Below, piece after piece: positions 18,780 to 27,720 of a DNA stretch of 64,000 nucleotides. Made by a program: the position numbers and the translations under genes. The stretch is taken from positions 2,720,001-2,784,000 of the forward strand of contig OZ219866.1 in NCBI GenBank assembly GCA_964291675.2. The letters are read 5' to 3'. The number at the start of each line of letters is the position of its first letter. Position 1 is the stretch's first letter. Below the pieces are notes generated by a model. That model worked only from the letters and a program-made list of their open reading frames with translations. It was not told where the DNA came from and did no database searches. This DNA is from Alphaproteobacteria bacterium. Its GTDB lineage: Bacteria > Pseudomonadota > Alphaproteobacteria > MPNO01.

Positions 18780-20882
18780 ATGCCCCTGGACGCAGCATAT
18801 CCCGACATCGCCTTCTCGGTTTGCCCGCATGACTGCCCGAGCGCCTGCGCGCTCGACGTCGAGCGCCTGGCGCCTGACCGGATCGGCGCGGTGCGCGGCG
18901 CGGAGGACAACCGCTACACCGCGGGCGTGGTGTGCGCCAAGGTCGCCCGCTACGCCGAGCGGGTGCATCACCCGGACCGCCTGACCCGGCCGTTGCTTCG
19001 GACCGGGCCCAGGGGGTCGGGCGACTTCGCCGAGATCTCCTGGGACGAAGCGCTCGACCGGGTGGCCGATGTCTTCGCCGAGCGCGCCGCGCGCCTGGGC
19101 AACGAGACCGTCTGGCCCTACTACTACGCCGGCACCATGGGGCTGGTGCAGCGCGAGGGCATCAACCGTCTGCGCCACGTCATGCGTTATTCGCGGCAGT
19201 TGAGGACCATCTGTTCGGCGCTGACCGACGCCGGCTGGCTGGCCGGTGTGGGCGCCAGGTACGGCCCCGATAGCTGCGAGGTGGCGCTCAGCGACCTGAT
19301 CGTGGTCTGGGGCTCCAATCCGGTCCACACCCAGGTCAACCTGATGCACCACATCGCCGTCGCCAGAAAGACGCGCGGGGCCAAGCTGGCGGTGATCGAC
19401 CCTTACCGGACCGGGACCGCGAAGATCGCCGACCTTCATCTCGCGCTGCGCCCGGGCACCGACGGCGCGCTCGCCTGCGCGACGATGCACGTGCTGTTCC
19501 GCGACGGCTGGGCCGACCGGGGCTACATGGCGCGCTACGCCGACGACCCCGACCGGCTGGAAGCCCATCTCGCCGACCGCACGCCGGAATGGGCGGCCCG
19601 CATCACCGGGCTCGACGCCGCCGAGATCGAGGACTTCGCGGCGCTCTACGGCGCCAACAAGAAGGCGATGATCCGCGCCGGCTACGGCTTCTCGCGCTCG
19701 CGCAACGGGGCGGTCAACTACCACGCCGTGACCTGCCTGCCCACGGTGACCGGCGCCTGGGCGCATGAGGGCGGCGGCGCGCTCTACGCCAATAGCGGGC
19801 TGTTCGGCATCGACATGCGGCTGATCGATGGCACCGACGCCCTCGACCGCGACACGCGGGTTCTCGACATGTCGCGCATCGGCGCGGTGCTGACCGGCGA
19901 TCCGCGGGATATCGGCGACGGCCCGCCGGTCACCGCCATGCTGATCCAGAACACCAACCCGATGTCGGTGGCGCCCGAGCTGGGAAAGGTGAGAGAGGGC
20001 TTTTGCCGCGAGGATCTGTTCGTCTGCGTGCACGAGCAGTTCATGACCGAGACCGCGCGCATGGCCGATATCGTGCTGCCGGCGACGACGTTTCTCGAAC
20101 ATGACGACCTCTATGTCTCGCTCGGCCACACCCATCTCCAGATCGGCCCGCGCGCCATCGAGCCGCTCGGCGAAGCGCGGTCCAACCACGACGTGCTGTG
20201 CGCGCTCGCCCGGCGGCTCGGCGCGGAGCACGAAGGCTTTGGCATCGACGCCTGGGAGACGATCGACCGGACATTGTTGGCCTCGGGCTATTGCGGCGCC
20301 GACGAGCTGCGCGAGAGACGCTGGGTCGATTGCAACCCCCCCTTCGGAAAGGGCCATTTCACCGACGGGTTCCCGAATACGGACGGCCGCTTCCGCTTCG
20401 CCCCCGACTGGGCGGCGCTCGGCCCCCTGCATGAAGGGATGCCGGCGCTTCCCGACCACCACGCGATCATCGACGCGGCGGATGCGCGCCACCCGTTTCG
20501 GCTGGTCACCGCACCGTCGCGGAGCTTTCTCAATTCGAGCTTCACCGAGACCCCGACCGGGCAGGCGCAGGAAGACCGGCCGCGCGCGAAGATCCATCCC
20601 GAGGATTGCCGCCGGCTCGGCGTTGCCGCGGGGGACCGGGTGCGGATCGGCAATGACAGGGGGGCCGTCACCGTCGCCGCCGAGCCATTCGACGGGCTTC
20701 AGGAAGGCGTGACGATCGTCGAGGGGATCTGGCCCGGCAGCGCGTTCGAGGAAGAGATCGGCATCAACCTGCTGGTCAGCGCCGATCCCGGCCCGCCATC
20801 GGGTGGCGCGGTGTTCCACGATACCGCGGTGTGGATCGAGCCGGCCGGCCAAGCGCCGGATCGGCACGGGGGAGCCGCATGA
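18780..20882 (+). CDS. Molybdopterin-dependent oxidoreductase (DMSO reductase superfamily, cytoplasmic)
   Basis: CPHDCPSAC...C [4Fe-4S] motif, ISWDEALD, ETARMADIVLPA, FLNSSF, IHPED; no Tat motif. Confidence 0.92.
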   Translation: MPLDAAYPDIAFSVCPHDCPSACALDVERLAPDRIGAVRGAEDNRYTAGVVCAKVARYAERVHHPDRLTRPLLRTGPRGSGDFAEISWDEALDRVADVFAERAARLGNETVWPYYYAGTMGLVQREGINRLRHVMRYSRQLRTICSALTDAGWLAGVGARYGPDSCEVALSDLIVVWGSNPVHTQVNLMHHIAVARKTRGAKLAVIDPYRTGTAKIADLHLALRPGTDGALACATMHVLFRDGWADRGYMARYADDPDRLEAHLADRTPEWAARITGLDAAEIEDFAALYGANKKAMIRAGYGFSRSRNGAVNYHAVTCLPTVTGAWAHEGGGALYANSGLFGIDMRLIDGTDALDRDTRVLDMSRIGAVLTGDPRDIGDGPPVTAMLIQNTNPMSVAPELGKVREGFCREDLFVCVHEQFMTETARMADIVLPATTFLEHDDLYVSLGHTHLQIGPRAIEPLGEARSNHDVLCALARRLGAEHEGFGIDAWETIDRTLLASGYCGADELRERRWVDCNPPFGKGHFTDGFPNTDGRFRFAPDWAALGPLHEGMPALPDHHAIIDAADARHPFRLVTAPSRSFLNSSFTETPTGQAQEDRPRAKIHPEDCRRLGVAAGDRVRIGNDRGAVTVAAEPFDGLQEGVTIVEGIWPGSAFEEEIGINLLVSADPGPPSGGAVFHDTAVWIEPAGQAPDRHGGAA

Positions 20883-25939: not shown

Positions 25940-26350
25940 TTGCGGTACTTCTTCTACGGCACGCTGCTCGACCCGGATGTGCGGGCGCGCATCCTGGGAG
26001 CGTGGATAGGTCGGCGGGACCTGCCCGCGGCGCGGCTTCCGGGTTACCGGCGGGTCTATATCCGCGGCCGGCACTACCCGGTCGTGGTCCCGGCCGCCGG
26101 GGAGGCGGTGGAGGGCGTGCTGGCCGCCGGGCTCGACCGCGGTGCCGTGCTCCGCCTTGCGCGCTTCGAGAGCGACGAATATGTAGACGCCGAGCGCACC
26201 GTCCTGGTCGAAGGCGGACGGGCGCTCAGGGCGCGTGTATTCGTCGCCGGCCCGCTCGCCCACCCGAGCGATACGCCGTGGACCGTCGAGGCCTGGCGGC
26301 GTCGCCACAAGGGCGCGTTCATGCGCCGTCACTGCGTTCCGTTCCGCTGA
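25940..26350 (+). CDS. Gamma-glutamylcyclotransferase (AIG2-like) family protein
   Basis: FFYGTL N-terminus, YP, VEG, FE..EY. Confidence 0.8.
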   Translation: MRYFFYGTLLDPDVRARILGAWIGRRDLPAARLPGYRRVYIRGRHYPVVVPAAGEAVEGVLAAGLDRGAVLRLARFESDEYVDAERTVLVEGGRALRARVFVAGPLAHPSDTPWTVEAWRRRHKGAFMRRHCVPFR

Positions 26351-26373
26351 ACGCCGGGCCGAGGGAGGAGCTG

Positions 26374-26766
26374 ATGGCTGGACCGAAAGTGATGAAGCAA
26401 GACGTGATGAAGGCCTGCGAGGGCATGCTGCAGAAGCAGCTCTACGTCGTCTTCACCACGCCGACGAACGGGCTCGGCCCGGTGATGGAGAATATCGGGC
26501 CGCATCTCGAATACCAGGTCTCGCTGGAGGCGCGCGGCATCATGTTCGGCGCCGGCCCGTTCTGGAACGACGACGAGACCGAGTGGCTGGGCGAGGGGAT
26601 GGTGATCGTCCGCGCCGCCAGCCTCGACGAGGCGAGGGAGATCGCCGCCGCCGACCCGATGCACTCCTCCGGCGCAAGGTCGTTCACGATCCGCCCGTGG
26701 CTGATGAACGAGGGCACGGTAACGGTGAAGATCCGCTACTCCGACGGCTCGCGCGAGGTGATCTGA
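26374..26766 (+). CDS. YciI family protein
   Basis: GGAGGAG RBS; HLEYQ, AGP, EAREIAAADPMH. Confidence 0.85.
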   Translation: MAGPKVMKQDVMKACEGMLQKQLYVVFTTPTNGLGPVMENIGPHLEYQVSLEARGIMFGAGPFWNDDETEWLGEGMVIVRAASLDEAREIAAADPMHSSGARSFTIRPWLMNEGTVTVKIRYSDGSREVI

Positions 26767-26843
26767 GGGTGGCGCCGGGCGTTGAAGACCCCGCCCGCCT
26801 CGCCTAAGTTGGGGCGGTGGGCAGCGCAGGGAGAGGTGCGCCG

Positions 26844-27521
26844 ATGGCGGACGCAGCGATGGAAAGCCCGGTTACCCTCGACGAGTACCGCGCCATGGAC
26901 ATGGCGCAGCGCCGCGAGGTCTGGCTCGAGATCTCCGACATCACCGAGGCCCAGTTCGACGCCCACATGGCGGAGCAGAAGGCGCGCGAGGCGGCGGTGC
27001 CGCGGGTCGGCTCGATGGCGCCCGATTTCGTCGCCGACCGGCTCGACCGCAACCGCAGGCGGACCGGCCGGCAAATGCGGCTTTCCGACTACCGGGGGAA
27101 GCCGGTGGCGATCGCCTTCGGCTCGTTCACCTGACCTCCGTTCCGCGGCAAGGCCGTGCGCCTTAACGAGCTCTACGCCAGCTACGGGGACCGGGTGGAG
27201 TTCTTCCTGATCTACATCCGCGAGGCCCACCCCGCCAATGGCTGGCAGGTGCCCAACAACCTGATCGAGGACGTGATCTACGACGAGCCGGTCACCGACG
27301 AGGAGCGCAGCGAAATCGCCTCGGCCTGCCAGCTCGCCCTCGATATCGGGATGCCGATGCTGGTCGACCGCATCGACAACCACGTCGAGGAGAAATATGT
27401 CGGCCTGCCGATGCGCCAGTTCCTGATCGACGCCGAGGGCAGGATCGCCTATGCCGGCGCCAAGGGGCCGTTCGGCTGGGACGACGAGGCGTTTGAGGAA
27501 GCGCTGAAGGCGCTCTTGTAG
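26844..27521 (+). CDS. Iodothyronine deiodinase-like (thioredoxin-fold) selenoprotein, in-frame TGA at 27132-27134 (Sec97), 225 aa
   Basis: ORFs 26817..27134 and 27156..27521 are in one frame; read-through gives APDF...FGSFT-U-PPFR...YIREAHPANGW...DRIDN...GPFG, the deiodinase signature set. Confidence 0.85.
27144..27158 (+). promoter_or_regulatory. Candidate bacterial SECIS hairpin
   Basis: CGCGGC-AAG-GCCGTG stem-loop beginning 9 nt after the TGA; position fits a bacterial SECIS, but the loop does not clearly match the consensus. Confidence 0.45.
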
Positions 27522-27543: not shown

Positions 27544-27720
27544 GTGCCGAATATCACGGTCTCGGAAGAGGTGCTGAAGAAGCTCCGCGCGCTCAGGCGA
27601 CCGGGCGAGATCACCGACGACCAGGTGCTGGAGCGCATCGTCGGCGAGGCGTCGGGCGAGCAGGAGAAGCGGCTCAGGGCCTACGAGGCGCAGGAGCAGG
27701 ACATCCAGTCGACCAACTGA
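27544..27720 (+). CDS. 58-aa ribbon-helix-helix/antitoxin-like small protein (not in ORF track)
   Basis: GGGGAGG RBS, GTG start; MPNITVSEEVLKKLRALRRPGEITDDQVLERIVGEASGEQEKRLRAYEAQEQDIQSTN; GC3-rich codons; fills the intergenic gap. Confidence 0.7.
   Translation: MPNITVSEEVLKKLRALRRPGEITDDQVLERIVGEASGEQEKRLRAYEAQEQDIQSTN

Follow-up and report, generated by a model that had tools for sequence, protein, structure and literature searches.

The stretch of DNA analysed here (the window) comprises 64,000 nucleotides of the genome of an alphaproteobacterium (contig OZ219866.1, positions 2,720,001 to 2,784,000 of the forward strand). At 26844-27521 on the plus strand, it carries a sequence with one in-frame TGA that very probably encodes, as a single gene, a soluble selenoprotein of the cytoplasm. 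The protein belongs to the iodothyronine deiodinases, a thioredoxin/peroxiredoxin-like family, and a mechanism based on selenocysteine 97 (Sec97) and Cys162 is inferred for it. The gene and its parts are as follows.

26830-26836, plus strand: Shine-Dalgarno-like GGAGAGG, 7 nucleotides (nt) 5' of the ATG, by direct reading.
26844-27521, plus strand: coding sequence of the deiodinase-like selenoprotein, 225 residues followed by a TAG stop, based on the translation, the PF00837 match, orthologs, codon-position variation and the structural model.
26844-26996, plus strand: N-terminal extension of about 50 residues with three predicted helices, which precedes the Pfam match and which animal deiodinases do not have.
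27132-27134, plus strand: UGA codon 97, assigned as selenocysteine (Sec, U) in FGSFT-U-PPFR from the conserved TGA in homologs.
27144-27158, plus strand: hairpin CGCGGC-AAG-GCCGUG proposed by an earlier reading of the window, an overlapping and competing local fold that is not conserved.
27150-27164, plus strand: core hairpin of the putative selenocysteine insertion sequence (SECIS), with the stem AAGGC (27150-27154)/GCCUU (27160-27164) and the loop CGUGC (27155-27159).
27327-27329, plus strand: codon of Cys162, a candidate resolving cysteine that is invariant in the Sec forms.

The list of open reading frames (ORFs) of the window gives two entries at this place, 26817-27134 and 27156-27521, which lie in a common frame with only the TGA at 27132-27134 between them. 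The earlier reading, which was made from the letters of the window without database searches (the sequence-only reading), had taken the two calls as one frame split by this codon, and the ORF list and the translation bear this out. With TGA read as U, translation from the ATG at 26844 yields 225 residues containing FGSFT-U97-PPFR, YIREAHPANGW, DRIDN and GPFG, which are all of the read-through motifs that had been pointed out. The TGA is the only one in frame within 26844-27521. The start at 26844 is common to the 12 orthologs of the genus, the N-termini of which are all of the form MA/MT..ESPV.

Based on the comparison of homologs, the TGA at 27132-27134 genuinely encodes selenocysteine. When 61 related genomes, the window's own included, were searched in six frames, 44 gave matches, and the gene is present in 43 of the 60 other genomes of the window's own order. 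Every one of the 59 strong matches (E <= 1.1e-33, from 94% down to 39% identity) has exactly one TGA, and one of them, a locus of genome G049, has an additional TAA. Fifty-six of these loci were fetched, leaving out two G049 loci (extra TAA; contig edge) and the split match G043:C6, and a codon-by-codon check placed the TGA at the same codon in all 56, in the context FGS[FY]T-U-PP[FY]R. Among the 12 genus orthologs, the variable sites at codon positions 1, 2 and 3 number 27, 21 and 64 in the 96 codons upstream of the TGA and 33, 22 and 71 in the 128 codons downstream. Since variation is dominated by third positions, coding constraint operates in this frame on both sides of the TGA. In a class-wide sample, the gene was found in only 2 of 200 other genomes, one of which (G151) has TGA and the other (G255) TGC, encoding Cys, at this column. 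Of 18 full-length homologs in public databases, 17 have Cys in the Sec column and one has Trp. The alternation of Cys and TGA that the sequence-only reading had predicted for this column is thus found in both sets. Neither the peptide AVRL nor the hairpin that encodes it is conserved in the TGC form of G255 or in the Cys forms of the databases. The entry with Trp (P0002, 233 residues, 69% identical) reads FGSFTWPPFR, and its TGA was evidently called under a code in which TGA is read as W. The gene is routinely split or truncated by gene callers, and 49 of the best 50 public hits are post-TGA fragments, 123-132 residues long and covering only the C-terminal 52-56%. Paralogous Sec-type deiodinase-like genes occur in G034 (4 copies), G047 (4), G012 (3) and G043 (3 matches), and two divergent copies on contig C15 of G034 flank an IclR-type regulator, separated from each other by about 1.2 kb. 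The second deiodinase-like copy of G255 (C8:1206868-1207413, minus strand, L113), 37% identical, has an in-frame TAG, which may reflect either a pseudogene or an overrun of the alignment.

The genome of the organism (4.8 Mb, 2 contigs, 93.7% complete) encodes the machinery for selenocysteine insertion, for which the sequence-only reading had advised a search. Profile searches identified selA (565 bits), selB (456 bits), selD (314 bits) and a tRNA-Sec (76.7 bits), all four above the family cut-offs, and ARAGORN calls the latter tRNA-SeC with the anticodon tca. The selA, selB and tRNA-Sec genes are clustered about 90 kb from the selenoprotein gene, and selD lies elsewhere. Furthermore, a genome scan for in-frame TGAs that have an open frame on either side and a short GC-rich hairpin downstream returned 2512 raw candidates, of which 13 have the loop CGTGC or CGTGA. 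Six of the 13 are recognizable selenoprotein genes, consisting of the deiodinase-like gene, one SelT/SelW/SelH gene and four AhpD_rel_CFYUT genes; the remaining seven are Arg/Pro-rich off-frame translations. The further genes, all outside the window, are given by their contigs in this genome (G000).

C1:550854-551582, plus strand: SelT/SelW/SelH-family gene (Rdx, CxxU) with an in-frame TGA (L107).
C2:580852-581985, plus strand: AhpD-related paralog (L108).
C2:1279402-1280577, plus strand: AhpD-related paralog (L109).
C2:2502342-2503832, minus strand: AhpD-related paralog (L110).
C1:737671-739926, plus strand: AhpD-related paralog (L111).

The SelT/SelW/SelH-family gene matches TIGR02174 at 50.9 bits (cut-off 34.2) and has CCCUC-CGUGC-GAGGG 16 nt past its UGA. 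The four AhpD_rel_CFYUT genes match NF041238 at 425-498 bits (cut-off 175), with the TGA in C-x-Y-U and UGCUC-CGUG[C/A]-GAGC[G/A] 19 nt past the UGA. Three unrelated families thus share C-CGUGC-G at a near-equal distance from the UGA, as would be expected of a common SelB-binding site. A Sec-type formate dehydrogenase, sought as a SECIS comparator, is not present in the genome, in which the matches fall below the cut-off and have no internal stop. The window itself contains a formate-dehydrogenase-like molybdopterin oxidoreductase of 700 residues (18780-20882, plus strand) with Fe4S4, Molybdopterin and Molydop_binding domains, which has no internal stop and is not a Sec form. In two other genera, the Sec machinery adjoins the deiodinase-like gene. 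At locus L088 (G043:C24), selA and selB lie directly downstream of the deiodinase-like gene, and at L089 (G048:C2) selB is found within 3.5 kb of it, with an AhpC-TSA fragment ORF alongside.

The SECIS element, as judged from its conservation, is the hairpin at 27150-27164. Sixty nucleotides around the TGA from the 56 loci were aligned without insertions or deletions, so that the spacing between TGA and hairpin is fixed, and gave 55 distinct rows. The conserved stretch in this alignment, AAGGCCGTGCGCCTT at 27150-27164, corresponds to a 5-bp stem (AAGGC/GCCUU) closed by the loop CGUGC, which begins 15 nt past the UGA and encodes K-A-V-R-L. All five core pairs form in 55 of the 55 distinct rows, with the outermost pair (25-39) realized as AU (18), CG (15), GC (14), UG (5) and GU (3) and the fourth pair (28-36) as GC (34), UA (8), AU (6), GU (4) and UG (3). 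On the 3' side, the covarying nucleotides occupy synonymous third positions in Arg and Leu codons, and the distant genome G151 contributes a further stem variant, CAAGC/GCUUG. The covariation score of the core is 0.409 compared with a shuffled mean of 0.150, a value that 0 of 500 shuffles reach, and controls slid along the alignment score at most 0.108. RNAalifold predicts the core hairpin at 27150-27164 and nothing else. In addition, codons +6 to +8 show no synonymous variation (AAG in 19/19, GCC in 39/39 and GTG in 54/54), and the four-fold codons nearby have three to four synonyms in use. The hairpin CGCGGC-AAG-GCCGTG, which the sequence-only reading had noted 9 nt past the TGA, is indeed present at 27144-27158, but its proposed role as the SECIS is not borne out. 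Its columns pair in 72.4% of cells compared with 72.1% after shuffling (207 of 500 shuffles reach the value), three of its six pairs are broken in 20 to 34 of the 55 rows, and no covariation is seen. An extended 8-bp stem was likewise rejected; its three outer pairs fail to form in 21, 51 and 23 of the 55 rows, and because these pairs are unsupported, only the 5-bp core stands.

The translated protein matches the Pfam profile T4_deiodinase (PF00837) at 84.2 bits (cut-off 27), with residues 46-216 aligned to positions 66-228 of 237, a profile test that the sequence-only reading had asked for. The AhpC-TSA profile (PF00578) covers the same stretch at 36.3 bits (cut-off 26), 48 bits under the deiodinase profile. 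NF038285 (deiodinase_rel) gives 174.5 bits, below its cut-off of 250, with the C-terminal 170 residues aligned to positions 175-341 of 347. In a sequence search of the PDB, the best matches are Dio2 (9h48, E 4e-18) and Dio3 (4tr3, E 7.5e-15) at 26-27% identity. An AlphaFold model, for which 55 Sec-form homologs were used and L070 was excluded since its frame extends beyond the locus, has a predicted local distance difference test (pLDDT) value of 92.4 and a predicted template modelling (pTM) score of 0.88, and adopts a thioredoxin-like core. Helices at 12-17, 20-30 and 35-51, with pLDDT of about 90, precede this core in the model and account for the additional helical N-terminus of about 50 residues that had been proposed. 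Foldseek ranks Dio2 (9h48, E 1.2e-13, template modelling (TM) score by target 0.81) first and Dio3 (4tr3, E 1.9e-12, TM by target 0.74) second, followed by ResA/TlpA-type oxidoreductases and peroxiredoxins. Of the sequence-only reading, the Sec-dependent gene, its deiodinase family, the helical N-terminus and the missing anchor stand, and the named hairpin does not stand as the SECIS.

All 55 Sec forms share the residues P53, P60, G85, F92, G93, S94, T96, U97, P98, P99, R101, R106, L107, Y124, E127, A128, H129, N139, P149, R155, C162, P171, P189, R191, G199, G208 and P209; conservation of R106 and L107 is partly an RNA constraint, because the hairpin encodes both. E127, H129 and R191 do not vary in a set of 19 homologs that includes Cys forms. 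In the available part of its text, PMC11592359 names Ser, Thr, Tyr, Glu and His residues as the proton relay of deiodinases; five of the six relay residues named there are invariant in the present family, and a counterpart of Trp167 is also present. The segment of about 26 residues from His129 to Arg155, a candidate counterpart of the deiodinase-specific insertion (loop-D region) that lies between the EAH motif and helix α2, aligns to Dio2 161-188 and contains a helix at 137-142, and no strand βD is called there in the model. Lys207 occupies the place of Dio2 Lys241 and Dio3 Arg275. Cys162 is situated at the end of helix 152-165. Among the 18 database homologs, the six FGSCTC forms, which have a Cys two residues before the active site, all lack an equivalent of Cys162, and in the other 12 Cys162 is kept in nine, shifted by one residue in one and missing in two. 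The six forms are probably one clade and hence do not represent six independent events, so that the mutual exclusion is a hint, not proof, that one thiol at either place may resolve the oxidized Sec or Cys.

A possible catalytic mechanism can be proposed from residue conservation together with the precedents of deiodinases and peroxiredoxins. SelB carrying Sec-tRNA would dock on the loop CGUGC, and Sec97 would thereby be inserted. In the folded protein, Sec97 would be located at the N-terminus of helix α1 within the active-site motif FGSxT-U-PPF, flanked by the conserved relay residues Ser94, Thr96, Tyr124, Glu127 and His129, as well as Arg191. The selenolate may then attack an electrophilic atom of the substrate, which could be a ring halogen of a phenol, the target of deiodinases, or else belong to a peroxide or a disulfide. 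The oxidized selenium could be resolved by the invariant Cys162 to form a selenenyl-sulfide, and thioredoxin or glutaredoxin would reduce the latter. This Sec97-Cys162-thiol reductase sequence of events is an inferred one.

In the window, the selenoprotein gene is preceded by an isochorismatase-family gene and a YCII-domain gene and followed by a 58-codon ORF and a divergent DHODH-like pair. The YCII-domain ORF directly upstream (26002-26766, plus strand) is well conserved in the genus only in its C-terminal ~134 residues, and for this reason its true start is probably well downstream of 26002. A contig of a relative in sequencing run X1 joins the end of the YCII gene to the start of the selenoprotein gene with 83 letters versus 77 in the window. 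The 58-codon ORF (27544-27720, plus strand) begins 22 nt past the stop of the gene and has no Pfam match; it shows 76-93% amino acid identity in all 12 genus loci and was not found beside the gene in other genera. To survey other genera, 149 neighbouring ORFs within 3.6 kb of the gene were collected from 20 loci, among which there is no universal partner. Conserved neighbourhood was rejected as a clue to function, since no neighbour recurs beyond chance outside the genus. Rieske oxygenase subunits are found near the gene at L081, L093, L095, L096 and L097, UbiD decarboxylases at L090, L097, L098 and L099 (4 of the 20 loci, in 3 genera), and GSTs at L082 and L091. In one genus (L093, L095 and L096), the gene forms an apparent operon with a PhyH gene and a glutaredoxin gene.

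The stretch or relatives of it also occur in three sequencing runs, all in the form of contigs, which are hence silent on transcription and read-through. Run X2 contains an exact copy of the stretch, with 0 differences over 1556 nt, although this run may be the source sample, and in another run several strains are present. Contigs of relatives, mostly 90-95% identical, occur in an RNA library labelled sponge metagenome; its 17 pieces are split 1/5/10/1 over the identity classes 99+, 95-99, 90-95 and under 90. A 475-nt contig of this library spans the TGA, and among the differences listed none falls in the TGA or the hairpin. The occurrence in the sponge library is that of one study and has no bearing on the substrate.

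Several observations weigh against the interpretation of the locus as a Sec gene of deiodinase type. The case for selenium insertion and a full-length product is wholly comparative, and the shuffle result for covariation is not a probability, because the shuffle control keeps the relatedness of the rows. In the window's own sequence, the competing hairpin is more stable than the core (-8.0 versus -4.9 kcal/mol), and the two folds are mutually exclusive; the element is consequently singled out by conservation and not by stability. The 69 nt past the UGA fold no better than shuffles (z +0.88), and no Rfam family is found near the UGA, the best hits there being irrelevant sRNAs at E >= 2. As regards a deiodinase-type reaction, the protein has no membrane anchor, as the sequence-only reading had expected (the 19-residue Kyte-Doolittle maximum reaches 1.17 in the whole protein and 0.03 within residues 1-60). 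The third relay His (Dio2 His182) aligns to Thr151, in a column occupied by T, S, D or N in all 19 homologs, and residues 135-160 contain no His. The Dio3 equivalent of this His is His219. Among paralogs, variation is seen at Trp134 and Lys207, which correspond to Dio3 Trp207 and Arg275, and the distal Cys (Dio3 Cys239; Dio2 Cys205) aligns to Met170, with the invariant Cys162 located eight residues before it. The neighbourhood offers little help either. The order isochorismatase-YCII-gene-58-residue ORF-DHODH-like is held in the 12 genus loci only. UbiD adjacency was rejected as a clue; it is near chance because the genomes concerned (G019, G037, G028 and G045) carry 30-38 UbiD matches over the cut-off per 2.7-4.9 Mb, and a rough calculation puts the share of loci expected to have a UbiD gene within 3.6 kb by chance alone at about 7%. 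The PhyH neighbour was considered as an iron/2-oxoglutarate halogenase and rejected as such, because its HxD triad is intact (H112-x-D114) and its closest match is the dioxygenase MysH (E 1.6e-30).

It is extremely improbable that the TGA is a true stop, whether arising from a nonsense mutation, a sequencing error or the presence of two genes, and that no full-length protein exists. It is true that gene callers split the gene, that C-terminal fragments make up 49 of the 50 best public hits and that the ORF list shows two ORFs. Against this, all 59 strong matches, down to 39% identity, have the TGA, coding constraint acts on both halves, and a dedicated hairpin covaries. The exact copy in the contigs of run X2 speaks against a stop in the same sense, subject to the possible identity of this run with the source sample, and in the structural model a stop at this position would cut the thioredoxin fold at its active site. 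For the selenoprotein itself, a general peroxide or thiol redox role and the reductive dehalogenation of a small halogenated aromatic compound are about as likely as each other. A peroxiredoxin-like or thiol-disulfide reductase activity, in which Sec97 would reduce hydroperoxides or a protein or low-molecular-weight disulfide or sulfenate, is a serious possibility with somewhat more than one chance in three. The same tentative standing applies to its cycle, in which Cys162 would resolve the Se-OH/Se-S species, thioredoxin or glutaredoxin would recycle the enzyme and the deiodinase-like residues would serve in proton transfer only. AhpC-TSA scores above its cut-off (36.3 versus 26 bits), the ResA/TlpA and peroxiredoxin folds come right behind Dio2 and Dio3 in the fold search, and the other selenoproteins of the genome are all small redox proteins (AhpD-related and SelW-like). 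The mutual exclusion of the proximal Cys and Cys162 (6/6 versus 9/12) would fit a two-thiol/selenol cycle, although the six FGSCTC forms are probably one clade, and in one genus a glutaredoxin-domain gene belongs to the same apparent operon. The peroxidatic Cys of peroxiredoxins lies in the motif PxxxTxxC. The present protein does not have this TxxC spacing, since Thr96 immediately precedes Sec97, and its YIxEAHP..GW block is strongly conserved, whereas ordinary peroxiredoxins and TlpA proteins are without it. A redox role is also what the literature on the family expects, as far as the available text of PMC1088965 goes.

A selenium-dependent reductive dehalogenase of small natural halo-aromatics, such as a halotyrosine, a bromophenol or a halo-hydroxybenzoate, is a tentative alternative, with slightly less than one chance in three. 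It is similarly doubtful whether Sec97 would abstract iodine, bromine or perhaps chlorine ortho to the phenolic oxygen, and no firmer that the halide would be released once Cys162 and thioredoxin had reduced an Se-X intermediate. Several features are consistent with such an activity: the T4_deiodinase score far exceeds that of AhpC-TSA (84 versus 36 bits), Dio2 and Dio3 are the best fold matches, and Thr is followed by U-P-P-F as in animal deiodinases and not by the UxxC/TxxC of thiol oxidoreductases and peroxiredoxins. Five of the six named relay residues are invariant, and some paralogs lie among genes of aromatic catabolism (Rieske oxygenase, UbiD, FAA hydrolase and dienelactone hydrolase). 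Relatives are found in the RNA library labelled sponge metagenome, and sponges are rich in brominated aromatics. On the other hand, the third relay His is absent, the counterparts Trp134 and Lys207 are not conserved, neighbours do not recur more often than by chance, the adjacent PhyH is no halogenase and the genes around the selenoprotein gene in the window are of housekeeping type. The describers of the family proposed a generic redox function only, according to the available text of PMC1088965.

The 'deiodinase-like protein' family was reported in 2005 from Sargasso Sea reads by Zhang, Fomenko and Gladyshev (PMC1088965), and the following is taken from the part of that report at hand. It comprised 4 Sec and 6 Cys sequences, bacterial SECIS elements were found, and the Sec form came from metagenome reads only and occurred in none of 260 complete genomes. 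A generic redox function was suggested because thyroid hormones are not expected in bacteria. The analysis of the Global Ocean Sampling data in 2008 lists, in its accessible part, 22 Sec and 21 Cys sequences (PMC2398784). The statement of the sequence-only reading that bacterial deiodinase-like Sec proteins had already been noted in metagenomes is in line with these two sources as far as their text is available (PMC1088965, PMC2398784). Because the family was described computationally in 2005 and appears in reviews up to 2026, the gene of the window is a further member of a known family. In the full-text literature, of which most subscription journals were not covered, no paper giving a substrate or activity of a bacterial member was found. 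Like the family as described in the available text of these sources, the window protein has a PF00837 match, an in-frame UGA at the active site, Cys homologs and, shortly 3' of the UGA, a SECIS of bacterial type whose small apical loop contains a G. Reviews of 2022 and 2026, in the portions available, list the family motif as UxxC (PMC9312934, PMC13188914), whereas the window protein has U-P-P-F. The Sec form also differs from that of the 2005 report, in its available text, by its occurrence in assembled genomes across a whole order (43/60). A second, distant PF00837 group (L077-L080, in G032, G026, G046 and G037, 31-36 bits) has FGSFT-U-PFC, that is, UxxC, together with a long C-terminal extension and a different post-UGA hairpin. 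The entry 'deiodinase-like, UxxC' in the reviews probably refers to this group.

With vertebrate Dio1-3, the bacterial protein shares FGSxT-U-PPF, YIxEAHPxxGW and the relay Ser/Thr/Tyr/Glu/His counterparts, and Dio2 and Dio3 are its best fold matches. In contrast, vertebrate deiodinases possess a transmembrane anchor where the bacterial protein has three soluble N-terminal helices, and their SECIS is located in the 3'-untranslated region and not inside the coding region. The third relay His of the vertebrate enzymes is replaced by Thr151, their distal Cys aligns to Met170, with the invariant Cys162 eight residues earlier, and the bacterial protein has Phe95 in place of a proximal Cys. Thyronine cannot be assumed to be the substrate of the bacterial protein. 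Peroxiredoxins (AhpC-TSA) and TlpA/ResA oxidoreductases resemble it in fold class, in the Arg before a β-strand (R191) and, likely, in a two-step cycle with a resolving Cys, but they are matched much more weakly than deiodinases, and the protein has no TxxC/CxxC and carries a putative deiodinase insertion with EAHP..GW. Compared with NF038285 (deiodinase_rel), the window protein is missing the N-terminal part of about 170 residues, which may correspond to EF-hand-fused Cys forms among the public hits. Thiol-dependent reductive dehalogenases of bacteria include PcpC, a glutathione-dependent tetrachlorohydroquinone dehalogenase, and the marine debrominase Bmp8. Their folds are unrelated (GST and CMD families) and they operate without selenium, but a possible analogy is that a nucleophilic thiol or selenol removes the halogen of an activated ring and is re-reduced through a disulfide.

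Bacterial deiodinase-like selenoproteins have been on record for about 20 years without one assigned substrate. Because the genes are now found in assembled genomes, several of them in a single contig, with boundaries, SECIS and a candidate resolving Cys defined, the family is open to genetics and biochemistry beyond metagenome counting. As a practical point, gene callers split or truncate the gene, and one entry has Trp at the Sec codon; the genome-wide loop C-CGUGC-G provides a simple handle for correct annotation of the selenoproteome of this organism. More speculatively, and with about one chance in four, the soluble bacterial deiodinase homologs may be selenium-dependent reductive dehalogenases of natural iodinated or brominated phenolics in marine, possibly sponge-associated alphaproteobacteria. 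If so, no selenoenzyme dehalogenase would have been known in bacteria before them, and they would provide a living model for the type of enzyme from which the thyroid-hormone deiodinases of animals arose.

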